DNA from: Puniceicoccales bacterium
Lineage (GTDB): Bacteria > Verrucomicrobiota > Verrucomicrobiia > Opitutales > LL51
DNA: 56,252 nucleotides
Assembly (NCBI GenBank): GCA_031255715.1
Contig: JAIRRZ010000009.1
Span: forward strand, 1-56,252
Reading direction: 5' to 3'
Made by a program: the position numbers and the translations under genes. Positions 1 through 56,252 of the stretch are shown one piece after another; the first letter of the stretch is position 1; the number at the start of each line of letters is the position of its first letter. Below the pieces are notes generated by a model that made no database searches, was not told the DNA's origin, and saw only the letters and a list, made by a program, of their open reading frames with translations.

Positions 1-206
1 GCCAAACCATGCGACGTTTTCGCTTGGTTGGGCCGCATAGGTCTTAAATTAAAATATTAAAGCCCCGCCCGCGGCGACGCCGCGGGCGGGGGTCTCAGGA
101 CCCCCGGTCGTCCGGCACCACGGGCAACGCCCGAGGTGCCGGACACAACCCCGGTCCAGGGGATGGATCCCCTGGCGGGGATCCCTAAGGGCGCGCAGCC
201 CTTAGG
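1..206. repeat. GC-rich composite palindromic element, locus A (modules P1 / AT linker / P2 / P3 / P4 / P5; P1 cut by window edge)
   Basis: Self-complementary arms read directly: P2 ccccgcccgcggcg-a-cgccgcgggcgggg (63-91), P3 ccggcacc..ggtgccgg (112-142), P4 ccagggga-tgga-tcccctgg (156-175), P5 cctaagggc-gcgca-gcccttagg (184-206). Colinear with 55994-56199 and, for P2-P5, with 11793-11927. Nearly pure G/C in an AT-rich background. Confidence 0.9.
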
Positions 207-257: not shown

Positions 258-869
258 GTGGAAGGAAAAGTTAATAGTTTTACATTAATTGAATTAGTAA
301 CGGTAATCGCATTGATATCGGTATTTTTATTTTTTCTAATAAAATTGAATATTACAGCGGGTAACGAAAGTCGACAAGTTAAAACAGCAGCATTGCTTCT
401 CGCATCGGGTTTTGACGACGCACATGGACAAGCGATTGTAGGTAATACCTACGTAAAACTTTTTATCGATACATCATCACATTGGAAGTTTCAACGAATA
501 GCGATTATGAAACAAAAGAACAATGCCTGGGAAGTAGAACGCGAAATTTTACTCCCCGAGCGAGCGTTTATCTTACCTTTAAATGATTTTTTGCAATATT
601 TCGTTGACGGGAAAAACCTTTCGACATATACTTATTCTGAAGAAAGCAACACTTTACAGGGAGAGACCGTTAAGGGTTATCGCTTCATTTTCGATTCGGA
701 AGGACATCTATCCCCTGCAGCGGCAACAATTTTGGGAATTGGTTATGGTGCGAAGGTTAGCAATAACATAGAATTAAAAAAAGACATTAACATTTACGGA
801 TTATTTATTACAGCGATGGGAAATACAATAGTATTGGAGTCAAAAAGTGCAATAGAAGAAGCAATATGA
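258..869 (+). CDS. Prepilin-type N-terminal cleavage/methylation domain protein (minor pseudopilin, GspH/FimT-like)
   Basis: GTG start. N-terminus ..VNS|FTLIELVTVIALISVFLFF has Glu at +5 and a hydrophobic helix. The stop overlaps the next start (ATGA at 866-869). Confidence 0.75.
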   Translation: MEGKVNSFTLIELVTVIALISVFLFFLIKLNITAGNESRQVKTAALLLASGFDDAHGQAIVGNTYVKLFIDTSSHWKFQRIAIMKQKNNAWEVEREILLPERAFILPLNDFLQYFVDGKNLSTYTYSEESNTLQGETVKGYRFIFDSEGHLSPAAATILGIGYGAKVSNNIELKKDINIYGLFITAMGNTIVLESKSAIEEAI

Positions 870-1372
870 GACAGGGATTTTCATTATTGGAGGTAATTTT
901 GGCCATTGGAATTTTAGGCCTTTCATTACCAATACTTTTGACGTATATGGCAGAAAGTGCGACAAAAACAGAGAAACGGATACAGGAAATCCTCATTGTC
1001 AATATGGGAAAAAATGTGCAAAACATTTTAAGTGCAGTGAATAAAGCACCGATGTTAGATGATAATAATCGGGCCTATTGTGGGTATAGGAATGGAATTT
1101 TTACAATAACGAATTCGGCAACAGGCTTTGGAGAAGCCGTTTTTGTACTAGGCCAAGAAACAGAAAAAGTTATACTTGGAGGAAAGGTTAGGGAAATACT
1201 TTATAGACTCTATTCTTGGAACAGTAAAAATCAAAGTTTGCGATTGATATTACCACATGCCGAAGTATGGCAATTCATTATTATGGATAGTGCAGAAACC
1301 GTCGCATGGATAAATAAGGCTGTTTTAGGGGATATTTTACAGAAGGCATCAAAAATTCAACCGAACGGGTAG
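866..1372 (+). CDS. Prepilin-type N-terminal domain protein (pseudopilin)
   Basis: MRQG|FSLLEVILAIGILGLSLPILL has the G-F cleavage motif, Glu at +5 and a hydrophobic helix. Translationally coupled to the upstream pseudopilin gene. Confidence 0.7.
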   Translation: MRQGFSLLEVILAIGILGLSLPILLTYMAESATKTEKRIQEILIVNMGKNVQNILSAVNKAPMLDDNNRAYCGYRNGIFTITNSATGFGEAVFVLGQETEKVILGGKVREILYRLYSWNSKNQSLRLILPHAEVWQFIIMDSAETVAWINKAVLGDILQKASKIQPNG

Positions 1373-1616
1373 TTTTCCTACAATGGGGCTCAAACAATGA
1401 TCCAAGAAGCCATTGATGCAGCTTGGAACTTTATTTCTAGCGATAAGCAATACGGAAAAAGCCATAAAAATATGGCCAATATCTACCGAACTATCTACAA
1501 ATTTTTTTATTACTTCATCGGTTAAACTTACCTTTTTTCGAAAAAATCTGTAACATGCATACATTATAATTCTGCTTCACAATGCGCCATTAGATGCCTA
1601 GAGTTAAACTCATCTC

Positions 1617-2216
1617 ATGAAAATCGATAATATTAAAATCTATGATTTTGAGGAATGTATCGTTGCCAGTGGATTACCCATGCTTTCTGCCTACGATGAA
1701 AATGAATTTGCCGACAACGTTATGCAATTGAAAAACAATCTTGCCCAAGGTCTGAGCAGCAAGCATATCTCCCGTGCGCGTAAACTAGCATCTAGCGACT
1801 CCGCTTCTGGACATTGTAATTTCCTCAAAGGTATCCTTGTGGCATGCAATGTGACAGGAACCCAAGCCTGGTGGATACAGGCTGGGCGCTATGGCCACTT
1901 CGTCATCGATTCAAGTATGTCCAAAATGCATCGCCTGAAATCCATGAATCTGGAAACGTGTTGCCATCCAAAAACATCTGTAATTTCACGGCAGGAAGTC
2001 GAAAAATTAGCTGAACTTGACGATATCGAATCACTCATTTACGCCTGTCCCATGGGGCTAGAACTTACCGCTCGGATCAATACAAACTATATGCAATTAC
2101 GTATCATGTACCACCAACGTAAGGCCCATCGACTTTCCGAATGGCATACCTTTTGCCACTGGATTGAATCGCTTCCCCTTGCTAAAGAATTGCTCGCTAC
2201 TGATACAACGGAATAA
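1617..2216 (+). CDS. ThyX-fold-like protein with degenerate ThyX signature (function unknown)
   Basis: 199 aa. Blocks GHCNFLKGILVACNV..AWW and CPMGLELTARINTNYMQLRIMYHQRKAHRLSEW resemble flavin-dependent thymidylate synthase ThyX blocks recalled from memory. The RHR..S.RY signature is replaced by QAGRYGHFVIDSSMSKM. The ORF is clean with normal composition. Confidence 0.45.
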   Translation: MKIDNIKIYDFEECIVASGLPMLSAYDENEFADNVMQLKNNLAQGLSSKHISRARKLASSDSASGHCNFLKGILVACNVTGTQAWWIQAGRYGHFVIDSSMSKMHRLKSMNLETCCHPKTSVISRQEVEKLAELDDIESLIYACPMGLELTARINTNYMQLRIMYHQRKAHRLSEWHTFCHWIESLPLAKELLATDTTE

Positions 2217-2377
2217 ATCAATATTTTTTTAGTCCAATAGAAGGACAAAATCCATTTCTATTGTTCAACAATCCAAGCTTAGTATTTTCTTGCGTAAAAG
2301 GGTAAGATCTTTTTTGCGGTCTTTTCCTTCAGCCAATTTATTTAGCTTTCACCAGTCTTGATCACTGATACCGTGAT

Positions 2378-3565
2378 TTAGGTACCGGTTTTTTCTACTT
2401 CTGTTTGCTGTGGAAGACTATTTTGTTTTTTATATTTTGCCTCAATTGCATCAACTTTTTTCTTAGACGTACTAACCCACCTTTTTGCAGGCATCTCATT
2501 AACTTGTTTAACAATTAATGCAAGATCTTGTTCCACATTCTTTGCATTTGAAGGAATTTTAAGATCACCATATCCTCCTTTTGAAATTTTTTCTTCAAAA
2601 GCATCCGCTTTTATCCATACTTCAATCGCCTTTTGTAATTGCGTTACTATTGGAATAACTTTATTTTTGAATCTGAGAGACTCAATTGTATTGAGTGAAT
2701 CGGTCAGAGTTTTGATATCTTGTTCGACGTTTAGAAGACTTTTGCCATCCTTAGAGTTACCATATTTGCCTTCCGAAAATCTTTTGAAAATCGCTTCCGA
2801 GCGTATTATTGTCTTACATTTATAAGCAAATTCACTTAATAACTGACCTTTTCCATCTGGTTTTGATTTCACTGCATTTACAATGTTATCAATATCAGAA
2901 CAAGCTTTTAAAAGATTGGGTGCCTGTGCTCGCTCACCGTATTGTCCACTTAAAAACTCTTGCATAATTCCTTGAATTTGGGCCTGTGCTTTACTCCTTT
3001 CGGCATATGCTTGAATCCACAAACTCAAGGCAGAAGACTGTGTTAATTTTTGATATTGCTGTGCGACGACATCGATTTTTTCGCATATTACTTTTTTATT
3101 GTCCGTAGCAGACGTTTTGCTAACATTGTTTTTCATGTTTGTTAGAATCCCCAATATTTTTATAGCTACTTTAGCCTGAATTGCGGAGATTGTAGTTTCT
3201 GATTGTAAGTTTGAAGGGTAACTTTTCATCACCATATCAACTGCATTGAGCGCTTTATCAATAGCATCGGCAGAATTGGTATCGCCATAATGCCTTTTCC
3301 GGAAGCTATTTACAATGTCCCCGCATTTCATTTTAAGCTCTTTTCTTCGTTCAAGTCCAGAATCCGTACTCTTGGGGTTTTTGTCGTTATTGGTCAATTG
3401 TGGCGGTCGTGCATCCTTTAATGGTCCAGCAACACTTTTTGCCTTTGATTCAAGAGCTCCGCTACGAGAAATCCACTTTTCGGCATTCGCTTGGGTACTT
3501 GGCCCATGACCGGCTTGTAGTGTATTTATCCATAGCAATCCTAGAACAATATTTTTTTTATCCAT
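2378..3565 (-). CDS. Secreted protein with four internal G-x-YG repeats, unknown function
   Basis: N-terminal signal-like MDKKNIVLGLLWINTLQAGHG. Four copies of a ~35-aa unit: F.k.HYGDtnsadaidkALnavd, SGQYGERaqapnLLkacsDIdniv, EGKYGNSkdgkSLLnvEQDIktl, KGGYGDLkipsnAknvEQDLali. Confidence 0.6.
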   Translation of the reverse strand: MDKKNIVLGLLWINTLQAGHGPSTQANAEKWISRSGALESKAKSVAGPLKDARPPQLTNNDKNPKSTDSGLERRKELKMKCGDIVNSFRKRHYGDTNSADAIDKALNAVDMVMKSYPSNLQSETTISAIQAKVAIKILGILTNMKNNVSKTSATDNKKVICEKIDVVAQQYQKLTQSSALSLWIQAYAERSKAQAQIQGIMQEFLSGQYGERAQAPNLLKACSDIDNIVNAVKSKPDGKGQLLSEFAYKCKTIIRSEAIFKRFSEGKYGNSKDGKSLLNVEQDIKTLTDSLNTIESLRFKNKVIPIVTQLQKAIEVWIKADAFEEKISKGGYGDLKIPSNAKNVEQDLALIVKQVNEMPAKRWVSTSKKKVDAIEAKYKKQNSLPQQTEVEKTGT

Positions 3566-3689
3566 ATCTTTCCCTTTATCTCAAACTACAATTAGCTAAG
3601 TAGTTATATATTCTGTACATGACTTTATAATTGTCAATAATTTTTCACATAAGATATAAAATAAAATGATAACATTTTAAGTGTAACGT

Positions 3690-3717
3690 AAAAAAACGAG
3701 TGAAATGCATCACTCGT
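3690..3717 (-). terminator. Rho-independent terminator downstream of the 3841-4074 ORF
   Basis: 8-bp stem acgagtga/tcactcgt (3696-3703 / 3710-3717) with a 6-nt loop. On the minus strand it is followed by a run of 6-7 T (A run 3690-3696 on plus). Confidence 0.6.
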
Positions 3718-3840
3718 TTTCCAATATAGTTCATTCTTTTACCGCAACTAAAGAAACTGGATCACAATGACTTTTTAAAGCCCATGATATAAATTTCAAT
3801 TGCTGGGAAAGTATTCATTATTTGTTTTCTTATTAATATC

Positions 3841-4074
3841 CTAAGATCCCTCAGCTCCTTCAATATTTTCATCGGGTTTTGAAGTTGGTGAAGATTCCTG
3901 TTGCGGTTCAAAAGAAACTTCAACCGGCTCACAATCCAGTAATGGGGACATTACTATTTCTGGAACCGAAGGAGAAGATGCCTGATCGCAAGCTCCCCAA
4001 ATGTTTTCTGTAGCAACACTTAGAACTAATAATTCTAAACCAATCTTTATTATTTTAATACTCATATTTAACAC
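3841..4074 (-). CDS. Small secreted acidic protein (hypothetical)
   Basis: N-terminal hydrophobic segment IKIIKIGLELLVLSVA, then a Pro/Ser/Glu-rich tail. A terminator lies downstream. No recognisable family. Confidence 0.4.
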   Translation of the reverse strand: MLNMSIKIIKIGLELLVLSVATENIWGACDQASSPSVPEIVMSPLLDCEPVEVSFEPQQESSPTSKPDENIEGAEGS

Positions 4075-4315
4075 TCCTTTTTAGATATATTCTATAAATA
4101 GAATTATTTTTCCCTAAAATAACGAGAAATTATTTGTATCTATGTTCTTTTTTTGCCTATCGCACCTGTTTCATTAGGCGTTCATAGACATTACTAATTT
4201 CTTAGGCTTTTGCCATAGCTTGTTCTATGCTTGTGTATTCACATTCCGGTTTACCTTTATTTAGTGCAAACTTATTGGAATGATAACTTAAACATAGCTC
4301 GCCGATAGGCTTTTT

Positions 4316-4909
4316 TTATTTCACCCTGCAAAGCTCCTTTTGAAATTCCCAGAGTATGTAGTCTTCACCGCTTGCTTGGCTCACTTTTGTCATTTGACCA
4401 CAGACAAAATATGGAGACTGCTTAATTGTATCCGCAGCATCAAAAAACATAACTCTCTTTTCTCCTGGAATAAGAACCCCGGGTTCAGAAGAATCCAATT
4501 TCTGTCGCAAAACTCTTTGTATTGTTTCTGGAGTTATTGGTCTTACTGGCAAGCCAAATATCGCAAACGCAGCATTTACTTTTTCGCTTTGTAATAAAGC
4601 ATTCAAATGCTGAACATATTGGGAAAGGTCCTCTACGGCCTGTATAGCAATGGGAAGCTCCGTATAAGTTTTATTAATTCCATTGGAGACTTGTTGTATA
4701 ACATATATATCATTTTGCTCTCCGAAGGCACCAAGCACGTAGGGTTGATAGAATCTTTCTTGTATTTCTTTACATGTCAATAAAGCAGCCGCACGCATGG
4801 CATTTTCCTGTATGCTATTCCTTATTTGGTCTATGACTTCCTGTGCGTTTACTTCAGCAGAACTTGTTTGCACCTGTCCATTAATTAACATTTTTATCAT
4901 TTTATTCAT
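4316..4909 (-). CDS. Hypothetical cytoplasmic protein
   Basis: Clean 197-aa ORF with protein-like composition. No signal peptide and no family recognised. Confidence 0.5.
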   Translation of the reverse strand: MNKMIKMLINGQVQTSSAEVNAQEVIDQIRNSIQENAMRAAALLTCKEIQERFYQPYVLGAFGEQNDIYVIQQVSNGINKTYTELPIAIQAVEDLSQYVQHLNALLQSEKVNAAFAIFGLPVRPITPETIQRVLRQKLDSSEPGVLIPGEKRVMFFDAADTIKQSPYFVCGQMTKVSQASGEDYILWEFQKELCRVK

Positions 4910-8614: not shown

Positions 8615-9930
8615 GATGCTTTGACCACCGAAAAAACAAGTTCCGCCGAAGATACAACCTGACCATCTATTTTACATTCCGCCGATGCAACACCGATTTT
8701 ATCGCCGCGATATTTTATGATTTTCACGGAAATTTCTAATTGATCTCCCGGAGTCACCGGCTTTCGAAATTTTACTTTATCACAACTCATAAAATATGCT
8801 AGCCGTTGTTCATATTGGTAGCGTTTTAGCATTAGTATTCCTGCTGCCTGAGCCATTGCTTCGACCTGCAAAACCCCGGGCATAACCGGATGCCCTGGAT
8901 AATGCCCTACAAAATAGGGTTCGTTAATGGTTACATTTTTCACAGCTCGAAGTGAATTATCATCGATAAATTCTATTACGCGATCGATTAAAATAAAGGG
9001 ATAGCGATGGGGTAATGTATTTAGAATTCTTACAATATCAAAGGCCGTATTTCTCACGATCGAAGTTTTAAGTTCGGGTCTTTGCGCTATCGTTTTCGTA
9101 CCTTCCCGATGTTGTCTCCAAATTTCTTTTGCCAACTGGACGTTAAACGCATGGCCGGGGCGAATCGCAATAATATGACAACGTAAATCCATTCCCAAAA
9201 GTGCCATGTCTCCTATGATATCAAGCATCTTATGACGCACAAATTCATCGCTAAAGCGTAAAGGTTCTTTGGATAGAACCTGATCGCCTTTAATAAGAAT
9301 AGCCGAATCCAGACTTGCACCTTGAATTTTTCCGCATCGCAAAAGAGGTTCTATATCCTCATAAATCGCAAATGTTCTTGCCGGAGCAATATCACTTGTA
9401 TAACTTTCAGGATAAATGTCGAGTGACAAATGCTGAGTAAAAAGTCCCCGATCATCGGCTGAAGTACAGGTTATTTTGAACCCGTTATAGGGCAATGCGA
9501 TGAGTGAACGATTACCTTCGGTAACGGAAATAGGTGTGTGTAATTTAAAGACTTTCCGCTCGGCATCGAGTTCCATAGGTTCCGCTTCGTAAAGCAAATT
9601 GACATAAAATTTTGCCGATCCGTCGAGGATGGGTGGCTCTTCCGCATCAATTTCAATGAAGATATTGTCAATATGCAGGCCACTAAGGGCACTTAAAATA
9701 TGTTCAACGGTGTAAATTTGAATATCATTGGACGAAATTGTCGTACAGCGGATCAGATCTCCCACCATTTCCACTGATGGCCGTAATTCCGGCTTATTAT
9801 AAAGGTCGACGCGGCGAAAAACAATCCCCGTGTATGCAGGCGCTGGTTTGAAGACGAGCTTGACCGTTTTACCCGTATGAAGTCCGATACCCTGAATAGA
9901 AATTTCCTTCGAAATGGTACGCTGTCCCAT
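8611..9930 (-). CDS. lpxC/fabZ: Bifunctional UDP-3-O-acyl-GlcNAc deacetylase / 3-hydroxyacyl-ACP dehydratase (LpxC-FabZ fusion)
   Basis: N-terminal LpxC ([16 protein letters not shown].., [19 protein letters not shown]) is joined to C-terminal FabZ ([13 protein letters not shown].., [22 protein letters not shown]) in one 439-aa frame. Confidence 0.92.
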
Positions 9931-9935
9931 AATTT

Positions 9936-11315
9936 TTAATGATTATGTAAAACCTTTTTCAAATGGCCCACATTGCGTTTAATAACTTCATCATGTTCCA
10001 TCATGTTTTCAACGGATTTGCAAGCATAAATCACTGTCCCATGGTCGCGACCCCCAAAAGCAAGACCAATATCGACGAGCGATTGACTCGTCAAAGATCG
10101 ACTCAAATACATCGCAATTTGCCGCGCCATAGCAATATTCGCTGGCCGCCGCTTCCCTAGTAAATCAGCTGTTTTTAAACTGTAAAACTCTGCCACTTTT
10201 TGCTGAATTATATCGATGGAAGGGCTGTTACTTACTGTCCCTCCATGAAATAAGTCCTTCATAAACATTTTGAGCGTAGGGATATCAATCTGTACCTTTG
10301 TCAGTTCCATGTAACTCGCAACGCGTATTAAAGCTCCCTCGAGTTGCCGTACGTTACTCGAAACATTCTCCGCCAAATAACTCAAAACATTGGGTTCAAG
10401 TATTATTTTCAAGTCCTTTGCCTTTTTGGCCAAAATCGCGATACGCGTTTCCAAATCCGGTGGCTGAATATCCGTTACTAATCCCCATTGAAATCGGGAA
10501 ACAAGGCGACTTTCTAACTTAGAAATTTCCGATGCAGGACGATCGCTACACAGAAAAATTTGCCTTTGCGCTTCAAATAATTCATTAAATGTGTAGAAAA
10601 ATTCCTCTTGAATGCGCTCTTTCCCCGAAAGAAAATGAATATCGTCCAGAAGAAAAACATCGATACTACGATATTTTTTGCGAAACTTGGCCATCGAATT
10701 AAGCTGAATGGCCTGAATAAACTCATTGGTAAACTTTTCCGTCGACGTGTAAACGACGCGCGCTTTCCTGTTTTTTAGAAGAATTTGGTGGGCTACGGCA
10801 TGCATAAGATGGGTCTTTCCCAGTCCCGTCGACCCATAGAGAAACAGAGGATTGTAGGCTTTTCCAGGAGCGTTAGCAATGGCAATGGAGGCAGCATGAG
10901 CCATCTGACTTCCAGGCCCAATAACAAAATTCTCAAAGGTGTTTTTGGGGTTTAAAATATACCCTTCTTCGATCTCGTAGGCCTTTTCATTGCCCAGATT
11001 TTTGGTAGCATTGTTTTCAGTTTTTGGCGAAGAAAAAAGATTGCCATCGTCATCGGTTTTCAGAGATATTTTAAGTGATTTTCCGAGGGCCATTTGCAAC
11101 TTTTGTGCAATCATATCCTTGTAATTGTCATTGATCCAAATAGCCGCAAAATCATTGGGAACACCGAGAACAATATGATCATCTTCCTCGCTGAGAAGCG
11201 ATAATTCTTCGAACCAATTCTGGTAAATATCACCCTGAAAGTCCCTTTTTAGTTCCGACTTCACAAAGCTTAATGCACCACTTACACTCGTCTGCTCAAT
11301 TACCATGTTATTCAC
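9936..11315 (-). CDS. dnaA: Chromosomal replication initiator DnaA
   Basis: AAA+ core [28 protein letters not shown], and C-terminal DNA-binding domain [30 protein letters not shown] at 11315 or ATG at 11306. Confidence 0.93.
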
Positions 11316-11571
11316 ATTCTACCTCCAGAATTTTCCATACTCACAGAGTTCTTTTATAGATCAAATAAGTCTTTGAACTTATCAATTAAAAAATTACTTC
11401 ATTTTTTTAGTATCACCAAGAATCGGCATAAACCCTAGAAAATTTGAACACGAAATTTTGCGAAAATTATTTCGAAAAGCTAAATTAATTGCGGAAAATA
11501 AAAATGATTTCGAAAAAACCTCCGTCAAAGATAAAAATATCCACAGGTTAATAACATTTCAATGTGAATAA
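11308..11571. promoter_or_regulatory. Candidate DnaA boxes / oriC region upstream of dnaA
   Basis: 8/9 matches to TTATCCACA: ttattcaca (11308-11316), atatccaca (11537-11545), tgtgaataa = ttattcaca on the other strand (11563-11571). They sit in a ~400-bp AT-rich non-coding stretch. Confidence 0.4.
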
Positions 11572-11736
11572 CTTTTCCATGGTCTCTGAAACTTAAGTCT
11601 TTAGGATTTGGATTATTTTTTTGTATCGTGAAATTGATAAAGTATATTTATGCCCTTGCCATAAAAGAAAAAATTTCTATTTGATCTTGAAGAAGTGTAT
11701 CCCCACAGGCTTCGCTTCATATCTTACAAGATTAGT

Positions 11737-12069
11737 CAGAGGGCTTTGCCCTCTGGACCCCCGCAAGGAGTTCGGACTCCTTGACCTCGATACGCGGCGA
11801 AGCCGCGGGCGGGGTCTCAGGACCCCGGTCATCCGGCACTTCGGGTGTTGCCCAAGGTGCCGGATGCAATCCAGGTCCAGGGGATGGATCCCCTGGCGGG
11901 GATTCCTAAGGGCGCGCAGCCCTTAGGGAGCCAAATATGGGACTCTGCCCCGCCCCATACCCCGCAAGGAGTTCGGACTCCTTGACCTCGATACGCGGCC
12001 AAACCATGCGAAACTTCGCATGGTTTGGCCGCACGGTCAATGCCCGCCCGCGGCTTCGCCGCGGGCGGG
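11737..12069. repeat. GC-rich mosaic palindromic element cluster, locus B (P6-P7-halfP2-P3-P4-P5-P8-P7-P1-P2)
   Basis: Hairpins: cagagggc-ttt-gccctctg (11737-11755); caaggagt-tcgg-actccttg (twice); atccggcac..gtgccggat (11831-11865); ccagggga-tgga-tcccctgg (11877-11896); cctaagggc-gcgca-gcccttagg (11905-11927); ggccaaaccatgcgaa-ac-ttcgcatggtttggcc (11997-12030); cccgcccgcggc-ttc-gccgcgggcggg (12043-12069). Confidence 0.9.
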
Positions 12070-12136
12070 ATAATCCAGGTAATCCAAAAAACAGATTGCA
12101 AGTTCTTGAATTTCCGCAAATTGGCAATAGCTGAGA

Positions 12137-12586
12137 ATGGAAGCAATCCAGGAATTATATCAGGAAATTATCATCGACCACAGTAATTGTCCACGGAATG
12201 AGGGAAAAATCGAAAATCCGACCCATATCGCCGAAGGTTATAATGCAACTTGTGGCGATGAATTGACCATTTCGTTATTAGTAAAGAATGAAATTATCGA
12301 AGATATAAAATTTCAAGCCCAAGGTTGTTCCATTTCTAGGGCTTCTGGATCCATGTTGACAGAAAAAATTAGAGGAATGTCCTTTAATGGAGCATTGAAG
12401 TTTTCTAATAATCTCCGAAAAGTGCTCAGCAATGATTTCTCGGAAACGTTCGATGAAAATGAAATGGGTGATCTCGTCGCATTACTAGGTATAAAACAGT
12501 TTCCCATGCGCATCAAGTGTGCTACATTGGCCTGGCATACTTTTGAAAACGCATTAAAAAATATCACAAAGAACATCGTGAATTGA
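12137..12586 (+). CDS. sufU: SUF-type Fe-S cluster scaffold SufU (NifU N-terminal family)
   Basis: LYQEIIIDHSNCPRNEG.., NATCGDELT.., GCSISRASGSMLTE.., FPMRIKCATLAWHTF: all three Cys ligand blocks, colinear with Bacillus SufU. Confidence 0.88.
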   Translation: MEAIQELYQEIIIDHSNCPRNEGKIENPTHIAEGYNATCGDELTISLLVKNEIIEDIKFQAQGCSISRASGSMLTEKIRGMSFNGALKFSNNLRKVLSNDFSETFDENEMGDLVALLGIKQFPMRIKCATLAWHTFENALKNITKNIVN

Positions 12587-12626
12587 TGAATTTTTAATAT
12601 ATTTTTTCGAGATACTGGAATGATTC

Positions 12627-13858: not shown

Positions 13859-16800
13859 TTACGCCTCTATGCGAAATGGAAGGGCTAAACTTTTAATTTT
13901 TTCGTAATTGAAATTACAATTTAATTGTTCGGAAACATTGCGCCGAATTTGGCTACCATCTTCGCATGTAAAAACTAAAACACTTTCCGTTATTCCCGAA
14001 TTATGGTAAATGTAATCCCAAATTTTATCGAGCAATATGGAATCTTGAGGATCAACAATCCAATGAACTTTTTTTATGATTTTAGCGAGAGTATTCCCCA
14101 TATTGGCGATTTCTTGCACAACAAATCGATCATCGTTTTCCATTTTTTTCCGATTGCCGTTTACCACGATAATATTTTCATCAATGAGTAGATGGCCATA
14201 TTTTTCAAAAACACCGGCAAAACAACTTAAAATAAGTTTTTCCGTCAACATTTCCAATTGGAAAGTCGCCCACAGACGGCTGTCCTTTTTGGTAATACGC
14301 TTCTCAACAAGCCCTACAACACCACACAATTGAAATTCAACTTCAATGGCTGCTACGGAAGATACCGAATTAACTTGATCCAGCACATCGCTATAGTCAT
14401 CCAAAGGATGGCCTGTAACATAAAAACCTAGTAACGTTTTTTCATAATTTAACTTTTCAGCTTTCAACAATACGGGCCCCGTTTGGTCGATGGCATTGGA
14501 AAGTAGAGGTGTTTCCGTTGCCAACATGTCAAATAGTTGGAATTGGCCCGCATCGCGGTCCTTTTGCAGCGATGACGCTTCCGACATCATTCGCTCCAGA
14601 ACTTGAGCTAAATGTAACCGATCGACACCAAATTCATCGAAGGCCCCACTGAAAATTAAACATTCTGCTACGCGTTTATTAATTATTCGTAAGTCAACTC
14701 GACTAATAAAATCGGAAAAATTTTTAAAATCACCGTTTCGCTCCCGCTCTCTGATAATATTTTCTGCGGCAATATCCCCTACACCTTTAATCGCGCCAAG
14801 GCCGAAACGGATACATTGCCGTTGATGATTAGGTGTAAAATTGTCAAACGATTGATTAATATCAGGTCCTAGTACGTCGATACGCATACGGCCGCATTCG
14901 GAAATAAAATAAGCTACCTTGTCCACATTGCCCAGTGCCGCAGATAACATCGCTGCCATGAACTCTACGGAATGATTGGCCTTAAGATAAGCCGTCTGAT
15001 AGGCAATAATAGCGTAGGCGATGGAATGGGATTTGTTAAATCCATAACCGGCAAATTTCTCCAGTATGGAAAAAATCTCCTCCGCTTTTTCCCTAGAGAT
15101 ATTGTTGTGTTTTCTAGCACCTTCAACAAAGACACTGCGCTGCGCATCCATGACTTCGACCTTTTTCTTTCCCATCGCACGTCGCAAAATATCGGCACCA
15201 CCAAGTGTGTAACCTGCGATGATACGGGCCGCTTCCATTACCTGTTCCTGGTAAATCAAAATGCCGTAGGTCTTTCGACAAACATCTTTTAAAAGTGGAT
15301 GAGGATATTTTATTTTTTGTGGATCTTTTTTCCCAGCAACATAATCGTTAATCCATTCCATGGGCCCAGGACGATAAAGAGCACTGATGTCGCTAATTTC
15401 TTCCACGCTGCGAATTTCCAAACGCTTGCAAAGGGAGCGCATTCCCGCCGATTCCCCCAGTTGAAAGACGCCAATGGTTTCACCATTATTGAGTAATTTA
15501 TAGGTGTTTTTGTCATCATAGGCGATGTTATTCATGGAAAATTCAGGATCGTATTTTTGAATAAAACGCTCGCTATCTGCAATGATAGTCAGCGTAGTTA
15601 GGCCTAAAAAATCCATTTTTAGCAAACCCAAATCCTCAACGGCTTCCTTGGCATATTGGGTAGTAAGTACCCCCTCTTGGAGCGTGATGGGTAACATATT
15701 TTCAACGATATCCTCCGTAATAATAATACCGGCGGCATGGGTACCGGTATTGCGAACTGTACCTTCAATAATTTTTCCATCTTCTAAAATTTTTCCAATC
15801 CTGGGATTGAGATGAATTTCTTGTTGCAATTCTTTAGATTTTTCCAAAGCAGCATCAATGGAAATATTGAGTTCGTCGGGAACCATTTTAGCAATGCGAT
15901 TAGCCTCAACATAGGGAATGTCGTTGACGCGGCAAAGGTCACGAATCACCATCTTCGCACCAAAGGTACCAAAAGTAATAATATTGCCGACATGGTCATT
16001 GCCATACTTTTTACGGACGTATTCGATAACTTCACCGCGGCGGCGCATGCAAAAATCGATGTCGAAATCGGGCGGCGATACGCGCTCCGGATTGAGAAAA
16101 CGCTCAAAAAGTAATCCGAATTTCATGGGATCCACATCCGTAATGCGAATCAAATAAGCAATAATTGAGCCCGCTCCAGATCCTCTTCCCGGACCAACCG
16201 GTATGCCCTGCGCCTTTGCCCAATCGATAAAATCCCAAACAATTAAAAAATAATCCACAAAACCAGTCTTTTTTAAGATCGATAGCTCGTAGTCCAAGCG
16301 ATTGCAAAGTATCCATTCCTGTGACTCTGCCACACGTTCCTGTGGATCGACGTACTCAATGGTATAGCGCATTTTTAGTCCTTCGATACACAATTTTTTG
16401 AGGTAATCGAAATTGGATTCCCGATAGGGTACTCTTTCAGGACTTCTGGAAAGAATTTCAGATTTTTCGACTTCCTTGGAAAGCCCAGCGGCTACGCCGC
16501 TGGGCTCTTCAAAAGGCCCGATCCCAAAGGGATCAGGCAACGAAGTTGCCTGCCCGGCACTTTGTGCCGGCCGGGCCTTTTGATCCGCCGGCCACGACCG
16601 TAGGTCGTGGCCGGCTCTGGGTCCAGGGGATTCATCTCCTGGCGAGGTCTGGGGCAGAGCCCCAGAAACTATTTCCTGTCCGGAATCTTCATTCTCTGAA
16701 CCTTCGCAAAAAATTGCCTCGGCTTCCGATATCGATCGAAAAATCGACACAGCTTGCCCAAATTCACGGACTGAATAATCTGATCCAAGGGATGGATCTA

Positions 16801-17779
16801 AAAAAGAACTACGAAAGTCCTGCCCCATTTGTTCCAAATTTTGGACGGAATGAACGAGAAAATCACTGGCTTCTTGCGAGGTCTGGGACGGTATCCCAGT
16901 CTCTACCTCAGAAAGTGATCGACGAAAGACCGGGAAATGATTTTCGCCGTAACGTAGGGTAAAATCACACATATCGGCAATAAGCTGCGTATGGTCGAGG
17001 CATTCGGAGTGATCGCTAAATATTCGTTCCATTTCTTCTCGGGATTTGATGTAGAGCTGGTGCGTACTCATACGGAAACGATTGGTATCGGTTACCTTGG
17101 CAACGGTTTGGATACACAATAGCTGGTCATGGGCCTCCCAATCTTCCTGGAAAACATAGTGGGAATCATTGGTTGCGACAGTTCTTATGTCATTTTTTTC
17201 GGCTAGATCAAAAAGTATGGGCAGAATAGTTTGCGATTCGGGCATACCATGGTCCTGGACTTCGATAAATAGGCGATCTTTGCCAAAAATTTTTATAAGC
17301 CAGTCGAGTCCTTTCTGAGCGGACTCGACATCATTTCGCAGTGCCATGGAAGAGAGATAACCTTGATAACACCCCGTTAAACAAATTAATCCTTCCCCAT
17401 GAGTTGCAATGGTTTGCCAATTTATGCGAGGTCGATAATAAAAACCTTTCGTATGGGAAAAAGAAACGAGTTTCGATAAATTTTTATATCCCACTTCGTT
17501 CATGACTAGGAGTCCCATGTGGTAGAGTGGAAATTTTTCTTTTAGAGTATAATCTTTATCGAAGGTCGTATAAAGCTCGCAACCAATAATGGGTTTGATG
17601 CCGAATTCTTTTGCATATTTGAAAAAATCGGGAACACCGAATAAATTACCGTGGTCAGTCATGGCGAGGGCATGCATACCCAATTCTTTTGCCCGTGCAA
17701 AGAGGCGATCCATGCGACAAGCTCCATCGAGCAAACTATAATCGGTGTGCACGTGTAGGTGAACAAAGTTTTTCGCCAT
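13859..17779 (-). CDS. dnaE: DNA polymerase III alpha subunit carrying an in-frame ~165-codon insertion
   Basis: PHP motif [15 protein letters not shown], palm/fingers [40 protein letters not shown]-like [27 protein letters not shown]. Start at ATG 17779 (MAKNFVHLH). Insertion at 16418-16921. Confidence 0.93.
16482..16666. repeat. String of GC-rich hairpin modules, locus C, inside the dnaE reading frame
   Basis: agcccagcgg-ctacg-ccgctgggct (16482-16506), gatccc-aaa-gggatc, ggcaac-gaa-gttgcc, ccggcac-tttg-tgccgg, ccggccacgacc-gt-aggtcgtggccgg, degenerate P4 ccagggga-ttca-tctcctgg, tctggggc-aga-gccccaga (16648-16666). No stop in the dnaE frame. Confidence 0.8.
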
Positions 17780-18638: not shown

Positions 18639-19574
18639 CTAATTCATGATGAAATAAAAAGATACAAGATAGAGCATGAACAAAATAAGACCATTAAAAC
18701 GATCGATAGTACGTCTTACTGCTAAAAAGAAGCCCATTATGCTTGTTAAAACTACAAAAAATGGAATCCCAAAAAGACGAAAACGATTCTCGATACGCAA
18801 TGGACAAATACAAGCACTTGTTCCCGCAACAATGAGAATATTAAAAATATTAGAACCAATAATATTGCCAATACAAATGGAACCATATCCGCGAAAAGAA
18901 GCAATCAACGATGTTATAATTTCGGGGAAACTGGTACCTATGGCAATAATTGTAAATCCGACTAAAGAGTCGGACCATTCCATTTTATTTGCAATGGCAA
19001 TACTATAATAAATTACAATTTTTGCTCCAACTAAAAGCAATCCAATTCCCCAAAAAAATGTTCCAAAGGCTCTACCTAGATGAATGTTTTTTGTTATTTT
19101 TTTGACAATTCTATCTTTTTGAGGATACAATGTTCTTCGATCCAATCGACAAACGTAAATGATATACAAAAAACCTAATAAGCAAAGAAGAATTCCTTCA
19201 AAAGCCGTAAGTTCGGAAATAAGGATTAAAATACCAAATATACACGAAATTAAACAAAAAAAAGGAACTTCTTCGATGCGAAAAGGAATATCGAAGGGTT
19301 TAATCAAAGCAACTAATCCACCTGCTAAACCGATATTTACGAGGTTACTACCGATAACGTTACCTAGGACAATTTCCTGATGATTATCTAATGCAGCTAC
19401 GATAGAAGTGATGAGTTCCGGAGCAGATGTGGAAATTGCAACAATAGTCATGCCAATAACAAACTGACTTATATGCAAGCGCATTGCAATGGCACTGGCA
19501 CCACAACAAACGCGATCACCTCCATAAATAAGAAGTAAAAAGCCGACAATAACTAGTATAACAGTAAGGTACAT
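18639..19574 (-). CDS. Ca2+/Na+ antiporter (CaCA / YrbG family)
   Basis: Two alpha-repeat blocks, GMTIVAISTSAPELITSI and GFTIIAIGTSFPEIITSL, each followed by GNVIGSN / GNIIGSN, and about 10 hydrophobic segments. Start set at ATG 19574, because the ORF extension runs into repeat locus D. Confidence 0.8.
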   Translation of the reverse strand: MYLTVILVIVGFLLLIYGGDRVCCGASAIAMRLHISQFVIGMTIVAISTSAPELITSIVAALDNHQEIVLGNVIGSNLVNIGLAGGLVALIKPFDIPFRIEEVPFFCLISCIFGILILISELTAFEGILLCLLGFLYIIYVCRLDRRTLYPQKDRIVKKITKNIHLGRAFGTFFWGIGLLLVGAKIVIYYSIAIANKMEWSDSLVGFTIIAIGTSFPEIITSLIASFRGYGSICIGNIIGSNIFNILIVAGTSACICPLRIENRFRLFGIPFFVVLTSIMGFFLAVRRTIDRFNGLILFMLYLVSFYFIMN

Positions 19575-19654
19575 ACTCCCATTATCCGAATGATGGTAAA
19601 AAATAACGCGCTTGCAACCCTTGATCATAATGAAAAAAATTTTCTCATAGGTTA

Positions 19655-19784
19655 GCCGCACAGGTCAACCAGAGGGCTCCGCCTATGGAGCTCTGCCCCA
19701 TACCCCGCAAGGAGTCTGGACTCCTTGACCTCGGTACGCGGCCAAACCATGCGAAGCTTTCGCATGATTTGGCCGTATAGGTCA
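19655..19784. repeat. GC-rich palindromic element, locus D (P1-tail fragment / P6 half / P8 / P7 / P1)
   Basis: gccgcacaggtc, cagagggctccgcc, tatggagctctgccccatacc, caaggagt-ctgg-actccttg, ggccaaaccatgcgaag-c-tttcgcatgatttggcc (19740-19774), then gtataggtca + T run + taattaaata as at the other P1 copies. Confidence 0.9.
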
Positions 19785-19829
19785 TTTTTTTAATTAAATA
19801 TCTTACGAGGAATCTTCAAATAATTATTT

Positions 19830-54074: not shown

Positions 54075-55982
54075 GTGAAGCAGATTCATTTCCAGCAAAA
54101 TAACCGAAGAATTGCCATTTTAGGAATTTTTTTCCTGTTGGTGTTTCTGTTTTTAGCCTGTGGATTATTTTACCGACAGATTATTCAATATGATTATTTT
54201 TGCCAAAAGGAAAAGCGTCAAAACCAACGACGTATCATTCTTCCTGCTCCTCGCGGTGATATCTACGACCGTAATGGGAACTTGCTTGTCTGTAATAAAC
54301 CTTCCTTTGATTTGCAGCTCTATTTTGATGACATTCGCATTGAAGTCCGCCGAGAATACGCACGTTTGCTAAAAGAATTGCGCACGGAAAAAAAAACAAT
54401 CAACTGTAATTTACTACAAAAACAGGCACGGCAAAATATCGTCGAAAAATATCTCAAAGTAGCCAATACGATCACTGGTCGCAACGTTACCCTCGATACA
54501 AAATCCTTGGAACGGCACTACCGTGAATCGCTTCTTCTTCCCATTACAATTTTATCGGACCTCTCCAGCAAAGAATATATTCGCCTCGTCGACTATTTAC
54601 CTTCCTCATCTCCACTCTATATCGCCACAAATTATTATCGATTTTATCCCTACCAATCGGCAGCATGCCACGTACTAGGCTATGTTGGTTCTGCCATCGA
54701 AACATCCCATGCCAGCTCTTTGAAAACTTTTCAATTCATCGGAAAAACAGGCAAGGCGGGCATTGAACTTTCACAAAATCAAGTTCTGTCCGGCAGCTGC
54801 GGAGAACAAATTTTTTCTGTTGATCCCTCCGGGTTCCGTGCCGAATGTATCCAGGAAAAATACCCTCAAAAAGGCCATGATTGTACTTTAAGCATTGATA
54901 TTAATTTGCAAATAGCCGTAGAACGTGCCCTTGAAAACAAATTTGGTAGTGCCATCGTCCTCGATGTTTATTCCGGTGAAATTCTTGCCATGGCAAGTAA
55001 ACCAGACTACGATGTTAACCTTTTGAATCCCAAAATTACCTCGGAAATTTACAAAAAAATTACAAACAGTGGAGCCTGGCTCAATCGCGCTTTCCAAGGT
55101 GTTTACCCGCCTGCTTCCACATTTAAAATTATTTCAACAATCGCATTTCTACGCCACGGAATATCCTCCTGGGATCGAACCGATAGCATCGAATGTTCCG
55201 GAAAAACAAAAATCGGTACTCGCACTTTTAACTGTGACCACTCCACAGCTCACGGTACCGTATCCCTCCAATCTGCCATTGAAAAAAGTTGTAATGTTTA
55301 CTTTTATCTTCGGAGTCAAATTTGTGGTATCGAAAAAATCGCTGAAGAAGCAAAACATTTCCATCTTGACCAAAAAACGAATATCGAACTTCCTTTTGAA
55401 ACAAATCGTATGACAATTCCTTCTCCTGCTTGGAAAGAAAAAAAAGGCTACGGCAAATGGTTTCCCGGTGATACAGCAAATACATCTATCGGTCAGGGAT
55501 ACGTACTCGTTTCCCCGCTACAAATGGCCTGTTTTACAGCAAGTCTTGCCAAAAATCGCACACAAACTATTCCACATATTTTGCATGACCCGCGACATAG
55601 TCAAAATAATGCAAAAAAGATTGACCTTTCATCCGATAATTATGAAAAACTTTTACAAACACTTCAACGGGTAATCGACTCAGGAACAGGACGTTCAGCC
55701 AGTCTGAATCATGTAACACTAGCGGGTAAAAGTGGTACGGCACAGGTTTGGGAACACGGAAAAAAACGAAATGTGGCGTGGTTTATCGGATTTGCCCCCG
55801 TTGAAAATCCCAAAATTGCTATCGCTATCGCCATCCAGGAACAATCAAAATACGACAATTATTACGGCGGGAAAACAGCTGCTCCCATTGCTCGTCAAAT
55901 TCTAAACTTTTATTTTGAAGAAGAGAAATTGACCAGAGGGCTCCGCCCTCTGGACTCCCGCAAGGAGTCACAAACTCCTTGA
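54075..55982 (+). CDS. mrdA: Penicillin-binding protein 2 (elongation transpeptidase); C-terminal ~16 codons and stop lie in a repeat element
   Basis: GTG start, N-terminal TM, PRGDIYDRNGNLLV, active-site ASTFK, SCN (EKSCNVYF), KSGTAQ. The tail ..RGLRPLDSRKESQTP* is encoded by modules P6-P7. Confidence 0.9.
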   Translation: MKQIHFQQNNRRIAILGIFFLLVFLFLACGLFYRQIIQYDYFCQKEKRQNQRRIILPAPRGDIYDRNGNLLVCNKPSFDLQLYFDDIRIEVRREYARLLKELRTEKKTINCNLLQKQARQNIVEKYLKVANTITGRNVTLDTKSLERHYRESLLLPITILSDLSSKEYIRLVDYLPSSSPLYIATNYYRFYPYQSAACHVLGYVGSAIETSHASSLKTFQFIGKTGKAGIELSQNQVLSGSCGEQIFSVDPSGFRAECIQEKYPQKGHDCTLSIDINLQIAVERALENKFGSAIVLDVYSGEILAMASKPDYDVNLLNPKITSEIYKKITNSGAWLNRAFQGVYPPASTFKIISTIAFLRHGISSWDRTDSIECSGKTKIGTRTFNCDHSTAHGTVSLQSAIEKSCNVYFYLRSQICGIEKIAEEAKHFHLDQKTNIELPFETNRMTIPSPAWKEKKGYGKWFPGDTANTSIGQGYVLVSPLQMACFTASLAKNRTQTIPHILHDPRHSQNNAKKIDLSSDNYEKLLQTLQRVIDSGTGRSASLNHVTLAGKSGTAQVWEHGKKRNVAWFIGFAPVENPKIAIAIAIQEQSKYDNYYGGKTAAPIARQILNFYFEEEKLTRGLRPLDSRKESQTP

Positions 55983-56252
55983 CCTCGATACGCGGCCAAA
56001 ACATGCGAAACTTCGCATGGTTTGGCCGCACAGGTCTTTTTTTAATTAAAATTGTTTTTAATTAAAAATATTAAAGCCCCGCCCGCGGCGAAGCCGCGGG
56101 CAGGGGTCTTAGGACCCCCAGTCGTCCGGCACCACGGGCGCAATCCCGGTCCAGGGGATGGATCCCCTGGCGAGGATTCTAAGGGCGCGCAGCCCTTAGG
56201 GACCCGCGGGCGCCCCCCGCAGGCCGCCCGCCCGGCTGCACGGACGCCATGA
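55934..56252. repeat. GC-rich composite palindromic element, locus E (P6-P7-P1 / AT linker / P2-halfP3-P4-P5 + further GC-rich sequence to window end)
   Basis: cagagggc-tcc-gccctctg (55934-55952), caaggagt-cacaa-actccttg (55961-55981), ggccaaaacatgcgaa-ac-ttcgcatggtttggcc (55994-56027), P2 (56077-56106), P4 (56151-56170), P5 (56179-56199). Confidence 0.9.

Follow-up and report, generated by a model that had tools for sequence, protein, structure and literature searches.

How does an essential replicase come to carry a string of GC-rich hairpins in the middle of its reading frame? The question is raised by dnaE of a Puniceicoccales bacterium (Verrucomicrobiota), which lies on the minus strand at 13859-17821 of contig JAIRRZ010000009.1 (hereafter the window, the whole 56,252-nt stretch of DNA that was analysed). 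The gene encodes the DNA polymerase III (Pol III) alpha subunit as a complete and intact open reading frame (ORF) of 1320 aa, and the linker between its PHP and palm domains is occupied by an in-frame segment of 504 nt (16418-16921, minus strand; 168 codons, 301-468). We consider it very probable (about 85%) that this segment arose by composite, in-frame insertion of a dispersed repeat and is translated; the repeat, which is lineage-specific, GC-rich and multi-hairpin, would be a non-autonomous element like either the repetitive extragenic palindromes (REPs) and bacterial interspersed mosaic elements (BIMEs) or the Rickettsia palindromic elements (RPEs).

The DnaE protein has a canonical domain order (PHP, polymerase core with palm and thumb, fingers, HhH), with Pfam matches to PF02811 PHP (residues 21-191), PF07733 DNA_pol3_alpha (472-740), PF17657 finger and PF14579 HHH_6, and with structure matches to the Taq and E. 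coli Pol III alpha subunits at E ~1e-229. Its closest database relatives are metagenome-assembled genomes (MAGs) labelled Puniceicoccales (Verrucomicrobiota), whose series of isolate names presumably reflects a termite-gut origin. A first-pass annotation of this DNA had proposed an in-frame insertion between PHP and palm, and the span of the segment corresponds exactly to codons 301-468. The motif FPVF (residues 296-299) and the palm-side motif starting at residue 470 lie where that annotation had put them, and the insert is flanked by GENHFPVF(RR) and (E)SNFDYLKKL. Among relatives whose site is empty, the nearest three (P0008, P0009 and P0010, ~76-78% identical to the query) have linkers of 8-11 residues, and the linker is also short in all more distant Opitutae. 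The annotation gave about eight residues at this point in E. coli; it was right that the linker is short, and the actual count is seven (PTGDMST, between LPQF and EDYL).

The core of the insert (16476-16666) holds seven GC-rich hairpins, described here on the plus strand. Hairpin 1 (16482-16506; AGCCCAGCGGC-TAC-GCCGCTGGGCT) is a variant of the family module CCGCGGC-GAA-GCCGCGG and aligns to extragenic copies. It is followed by a module with the predicted fold of a three-way junction (16510-16582), whose 11-bp outer stem (CAAAAGGCCCG / CGGGCCTTTTG) surrounds three hairpins (16520-16534, 16534-16552 and 16554-16570), and then by hairpin 5 (16587-16615; GCCGGCCACGACC-GTA-GGTCGTGGCCGGC) with a perfect 13-bp stem. 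The right-end modules (16620-16666) read GGTCCAGGGGA-TTCA-TCTCCTGGC, GAGG and then TCTGGGGC-AGA-GCCCCAGA; here lie the degenerate 'P4' hairpin (16623-16642; CCAGGGGA-TTCA-TCTCCTGG) and the last core hairpin (16648-16666). The earlier count of seven hairpins, P4 included, was borne out. A scan for perfect GC-rich hairpins made eight calls in the core (five distinct, some of them called with two loop sizes) versus a mean of 0.04 and a maximum of 2 in composition-matched shuffles. GC content is 0.64-0.69 in the core versus ~0.40 across the window, and the core folds as single-stranded RNA or DNA with z-scores of -10 to -11 relative to shuffles (-132 kcal/mol over 203 nt for the mRNA segment, z=-10).

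These hairpins belong to a dispersed family. Perfect GC-rich hairpins in the 56 kb are nearly confined to five clusters, one of which is the dnaE core (16482-16666); relatives contain many further ones. The other four are extragenic copies on the plus strand, at the left window end (1-213), at 11735-12087 upstream of dnaA (9936-11315, minus strand), at the right window end (55933-56252) and, with imperfect hairpins, at 19642-19790 between a Na/Ca-exchanger gene and topA. The copy upstream of dnaA is a composite, used here as the standard for module order. When both are read on the plus strand, its element at 11737-11930 and the insert share one order: a CAGAGGGC hairpin, a CGCAAGGAGT hairpin, the CCGCGGC-GAA-GCCGCGG hairpin, variable central hairpins, GGTCCAGGGGAT..ATCCCCTGGC and a terminal hairpin. 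Searches with the insert gave nine significant matches outside dnaE (best E 2.8e-13), and 40 control pieces of dnaE in the same search gave none. The three-way-junction module matches an extragenic copy in a relative (L011 9154-9243; 77% over 96 nt, E 3e-13). For the right-end modules, the matches are two extragenic copies (L009 13428-13472 and 13508-13553; 84-85%, E ~1e-6) in a genome whose own dnaE site is empty, as well as window positions 153-180, 11874-11901, 56148-56175 and 19686-19730. The dnaE inserts of two further relatives (L002 and L080) match extragenic copies at E 1e-20 to 1e-22. The proposed repeat-element origin of the insert is thus supported by direct homology to copies outside the gene.

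The segments on either side of the core proved to have the same origin. What the first-pass annotation called the AT-normal flank is not host sequence: both flanks are older, decayed modules of the repeat family. On the plus strand, the left end (16418-16480) comprises a decayed CCAGAGGGC-NNN-GCCCTCTGG hairpin followed by a decayed CGCAAGGAGT-NNNN-ACTCCTTGACCTC hairpin. Both modules are intact at the same dnaE position in L002, L003 and L080, where they match extragenic copies (for example window 55933-56036) at E 1e-15 to 1e-22. To the right of the core, the AT-normal segment 16667-16921 folds with a z-score of just -2. Its orthologous counterparts are the dnaE inserts of L080 and L003, whose hairpins remain intact. 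The segment contains a degenerate palindrome (16826-16852), at the position of which L080 keeps a perfect long hairpin, and a decayed second copy of the right-end modules (16870-16899), visible as an internal direct repeat with 16636-16665 (77% identical). This second copy includes the small hairpin CTGGGA-CGGTA-TCCCAG, which exists as annotated but lies at 16883-16899, two bases away from the 16881-16897 first given. Because the flanks are older modules of the family, the insert is a nested, multi-stage composite of modules of different ages.

The reading frame runs through all of these modules. The 504 nt contain no stop in the dnaE frame, as had been noted for the core, and shuffles achieve the same at P=0.0002. 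All seven of the complete DNA variants, together with one known as protein (P0004), differ in length and yet are in frame and stop-free. Since frame and stop-freeness have been kept across these variants, the segment is probably translated rather than removed. In the comparison with an independent MAG whose DnaE is 90% identical (L001), dN/dS (the ratio of nonsynonymous to synonymous divergence) is 0.72 for the whole insert and 0.6-1.1 across it, versus 0.06-0.07 for the remainder of dnaE. The AlphaFold2 model places residues 312-466 at a pLDDT (predicted local distance difference test) of 27-38, below 50, between well-folded PHP and palm flanks at 85-95. Near-neutral dN/dS and predicted disorder indicate that the peptide, which is rich in Pro, Gly, Ser and Ala, is nearly free to vary in sequence, and it most likely forms a disordered surface loop.

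Could the 168 residues instead be a protein module selected for its amino-acid sequence, such as a linker that regulates Pol III alpha or mediates its interactions, with the hairpins being incidental? The frame is retained in every lineage, and the motif (S)GALPQT.PGD.SPGP recurs in P0001-P0007, both of which would fit such a module. However, the recurring motif is the translation of the conserved right-end hairpins, dN/dS is 0.6-1.1, disorder is predicted and no Pfam domain was found, and both length and sequence vary widely among close relatives, with the segment absent from sister genomes. We therefore hold a selected protein module to be highly improbable.

Least credible of all is that the segment is lost before the mature product or is an artefact, through an intein, an intron, a translational bypass, a misassembly or decay of this dnaE into a pseudogene. 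In favour of such readings, the region has very strong structure, and in two relatives (L080/L005 and L011) the short-read assembly is broken within the insert. Each such candidate was set aside on its own grounds. An intein has no Hint or intein Pfam match, and the insert is of low complexity and disordered; for an intron, no Rfam family scored above threshold; and removal before translation would not require a conserved frame without stops. A misassembly is contradicted by L001, which has the same arrangement along the whole length of the insert at 79% nucleotide identity, and a pseudogene by the strong purifying selection on the remainder of dnaE.

An ORF of 138 aa (16546-16962, plus strand) is antisense to the insert. 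It is open because the GC-rich palindromic sequence lacks stops on both strands, and it is likely an annotation artefact.

Relatives preserve both filled and empty sites. Filled sites are found in the window, in P0001-P0007 and, as partial sequences, in L080 and L011, with inserts of ~50-170 residues. They are confined to this closest clade, and no homologous segment was seen in orthologues from unrelated bacteria. The filled inserts share only their translated end modules (for example GALPQT.PGD.SPGP and EVKES..SPEG), and the central modules differ among window/L001, L002/L080 and L011. In a neighbour-joining tree built with the insert removed, the filled sequences formed one bipartition in 144 of 200 bootstraps. 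This suggests that the first insertion was ancestral to the subclade and not private to this genome. Judged from these sequences, the simplest reading would be a single ancestral insertion, after which each lineage gained, lost and duplicated modules in its own way, although the same hot spot may have been hit independently two or more times. Unrelated, shorter expansions at or near the PHP-palm junction occur in P0013 and P0014 (~20-25 residues), in P0037 and in Taq Pol III alpha (2hpi; ~55 residues), and since these arose in other lineages the junction seems to be generally tolerant of extra sequence.

The stems of the core are conserved to a degree that the peptide is not. Between the window and L001, 32% of the unpaired core positions differ versus 5% of the paired ones, the unpaired divergence being close to the synonymous rate of dnaE. 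Of the eight stem substitutions, six fall on both sides of three pairs in which pairing is kept (P=5e-5 if placed at random). One of these is an A-T to C-G change in hairpin 1 (16487/16501), and the other two are in hairpin 5 (16588/16614 and 16595/16607). Synonymous divergence is 0.19 in the core versus 0.45-0.48 in the remainder of the gene. As the compensatory changes alter the peptide, the constraint appears to act on the nucleic acid; as the older modules have decayed, it is not permanent.

One explanation is that the hairpin array is kept as a nucleic-acid element rather than as a tolerated passenger. The roles that suggest themselves are a structured RNA or single-stranded DNA that slows translation between PHP and palm, a determinant of dnaE mRNA stability, a binding site for nucleoid proteins or gyrase as in E. 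coli BIMEs, or a target recognised by the transposase of the family. Consistent with such a role, stems are 6-7 times more conserved than unpaired positions that change at about the synonymous rate, three pairs have changed in a compensatory way, synonymous divergence is reduced in the core and the mRNA segment is very stable. There is in addition a weak likeness to naRNA4, a family which we take to be REP-derived: at a permissive threshold, Rfam returned only sub-threshold matches, among them naRNA4 over the three-way junction (16515-16577, plus strand; 23 bits versus a gathering score of 59.5, E 0.09) and sau-63 (26 bits versus 100). Rfam describes naRNA4 as a nucleoid-associated non-coding RNA of E. 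coli. On the other hand, the dnaE genes of sister genomes work without the insert, and decay is seen in the older modules here and throughout the inserts of L004, L006 and L007, which makes any constraint transient. Scans of 16200-17200 found no terminator and one promoter-like site, as expected by chance. Nor do mismatches show a strand preference that would point to RNA; the sense strand has four G-T and two A-C mismatches and the antisense strand two G-T pairs, counts that are uninformative on strand. Overall, maintenance as a nucleic-acid element seems unlikely.

Somewhat more plausible, though tentative, is that concerted evolution accounts for the stems without selection at this site, through gene conversion or template switching with extragenic copies or from arm to arm. 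Correction of one arm of a quasi-palindrome to the other is well established as a mutational process. The family is modular and exists in many copies, whole modules differ between lineages at one position as if swapped, and the modules that are decaying (the flanks) are those that have diverged from the family. Against this, arm-to-arm conversion predicts approximately neutral change of pairs, but only 3 of 75 pairs changed versus 32% of unpaired positions, and no identical extragenic donor for hairpins 1 or 5 was found in the 170 kb searched. The stem conservation may reflect a function of the hairpins, their recognition by an enzyme that mobilises the family, or conversion by sister copies.

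A more far-reaching combination of these ideas is that the hairpin array is actively maintained in the essential gene, by stem selection or by continual repair from sister copies, and attracts further modules as a self-renewing landing pad. We regard this as improbable, more so than maintenance as a nucleic-acid element. If true, and together with the excess of REPs and RPEs in replication and repair genes, it would point to a non-random link between hairpin repeats and the replication machinery. That link could be mechanistic, with hairpins forming or integrating at sites of single-stranded DNA processing, or selective, acting on polymerase expression or fidelity.

Returning to the insertion of a dispersed repeat, we propose the following history, in which the single origin, the order of nesting, the means of mobility and the harmlessness of the loop are the parts we infer. 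One composite element would have inserted into the linker in an ancestor shared by a subclade of termite-gut Puniceicoccales, its left end made of a CAGAGGGC hairpin and a CAAGGAGT hairpin and its right end of a CCAGGGGAT hairpin and the terminal hairpin. The resident element would then have become a site of further gain, loss and duplication of modules, giving the lineage inserts of ~50-170 residues. The window/L001 lineage would have acquired a second block, made up of hairpin 1, the three-way junction, hairpin 5 and another right end. Because dnaE is essential, the survivors would be limited to in-frame, stop-free variants, and the Pro/Gly/Ser/Ala-rich peptide would persist as a disordered surface loop of nearly unconstrained sequence, presumably harmless to the enzyme. 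Old modules would drift towards the AT-rich composition of the genome and young modules would retain their stems.

Several points weigh against this account. Translation and retention of the segment in the mature protein are deduced from conservation of the frame, and monophyly of the filled clade reaches just 72% of bootstraps. Conserved stems are unexpected for a passive passenger, so that a nucleic-acid function or gene conversion is needed as well. The 20 window ORFs that were scanned include no transposase or other enzyme of mobilisation. Neither a target-site duplication nor terminal inverted repeats are definable, the empty and filled linkers being too diverged. Finally, unlike RPEs, the family is seen in one gene only, and a search with the translated repeat matched no other protein.

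The behaviour of the family has close precedents. RPEs are characterised by the insertion of palindromic repeats, in frame, into genes that are functional (PMC10969869). Intragenic REPs concentrate in replication and repair genes, which are often the sole genes hit in a genome (Di Nocera et al. 2013; PMC3733652); the same work records a palindromic element in dnaE of R. conorii and describes Opitutus terrae, a member of the same class (Opitutae), as REP-rich with copies inside uvrA, ligase and helicase genes (PMC3733652). Other small non-autonomous repeats, including ERIC, BOX and Nezha, are occasionally translated within a host ORF (reviewed in PMC10969869). The likeness to Rickettsia insertions drawn in the first-pass annotation is therefore well founded, and the insertion is less surprising because these precedents exist and include the same gene.

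The element in dnaE resembles RPEs in being a dispersed, hairpin-forming repeat of a host-associated bacterium that lies in frame in a functional ORF and is apparently translated at a tolerant position, and dnaE is a recorded host of both, in R. conorii and in the window. In contrast to RPEs, the present family occurs in Verrucomicrobiota and is GC-rich in an AT-rich genome; it consists of many short, interchangeable hairpins instead of one ~150 bp unit; it is found in one gene instead of dozens, with no conserved peptide family; and its insert has grown by nesting to 168 codons. On taxon and base composition, membership in RPE-1 to RPE-10 is unlikely. Similarities to REPs and BIMEs include short GC-rich palindromes in high copy number, an overwhelmingly extragenic location, clustering into mosaics and occasional in-frame copies in replication or repair genes. 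Unlike GTAG/CGTC REPs, the present hairpins carry such a tag within 6 nt of the stem end in only 4 of 96 cases (one GTAG, three CGTC). No REP-associated tyrosine transposase (RAYT) is known for the family, nor was one present among the scanned window ORFs. The loops are mostly 3 nt and closed by a C-G pair, and one module is a three-way junction. [quoted passage not shown] The GC clusters and mobile hairpin elements of fungal and algal organelles likewise are GC-rich hairpins that spread in an AT-rich genome, sometimes inside coding regions without breaking the frame, in organelles and not in bacteria. The present family behaves like RPEs and REPs but is probably a member of neither.

Beyond dnaE, no other gene contained family clusters in ~230 kb from 13 related loci. 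Several related contigs end in family repeats, including two that split dnaE, which fits a high-copy family. Searches of the literature on termite-gut Verrucomicrobia turned up no account of the family. When metagenomes were scanned for the three-way-junction module (GGGATCRGGCAACGAAGTTGC), zero loci were returned, and a protein search with the translated core gave no match, a weak negative in that a known relative was also missed. A metagenome scan for the CCAGGGGAT hairpin returned 54 loci (L081-L134) from unrelated organisms with a GC content of mostly 53-66%. These contigs contain the exact hairpin GTCCAGGGGAT-NN-ATCCCCTGG, in most cases embedded in a different conserved multi-hairpin repeat (..cacgggcgaagcccgtcagc..gagcatttgcgaacctggg[hairpin]ccgccggaggc) that is often followed by a T run. 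As they carry a different repeat, they are uninformative on the family in dnaE, and the hairpin in them is either a convergence or an unexplained shared motif.

Some features of the surroundings concern the extragenic copies. The largest cluster (11735-12087) sits in a 1.3-kb gap (11316-12626) upstream of dnaA, a likely origin region, and L011 likewise has a family copy (9140-9270) just upstream of its dnaA. The genes dnaA, dnaE and topA lie within 12 kb of one another. The copy at 19642-19790 overlaps the called GTG start of the Na/Ca-exchanger ORF (18639-19661, minus strand), whose true start is probably further downstream. The last ~16 codons of an ORF at 54075-55982 (plus strand) enter a CCAGAGGGC hairpin (55933-55982), and its C-terminus may also be repeat-derived. 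Both window ends (1-213 and 55933 onward) lie in repeat clusters, as do the ends of several related contigs, which suggests that these are assembly break points. Five consecutive ORFs of 168-395 aa at 258-4909 have no Pfam match at E <= 1e-5.

Here we describe a new repeat family with a known behaviour, in-frame RPE and REP insertions having been published for other bacteria and for the same gene. New are the points that the whole insert is repeat-derived and nested, that it appears to be ancestral to a subclade and remodelled within it, that its peptide is near-neutral and predicted to be disordered, and that its fresh stems show compensatory change. There is also a warning for annotation, as the family breaks short-read assemblies and creates spurious mirror ORFs such as 16546-16962 (plus strand). 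The locus gives a small yet clean indication that hairpin stems can be translated and still remain conserved, and it is a natural experiment on the tolerance of the PHP-palm junction of Pol III alpha for unstructured insertions. More broadly, it offers a clear and datable case of the absorption of a palindromic repeat into an essential enzyme outside Proteobacteria. Close relatives keep its stages, from the empty site through fresh GC-rich hairpins to modules decayed into ordinary-looking coding sequence, and the series shows a route by which selfish-looking DNA can give rise to 'orphan' disordered linkers in conserved proteins.

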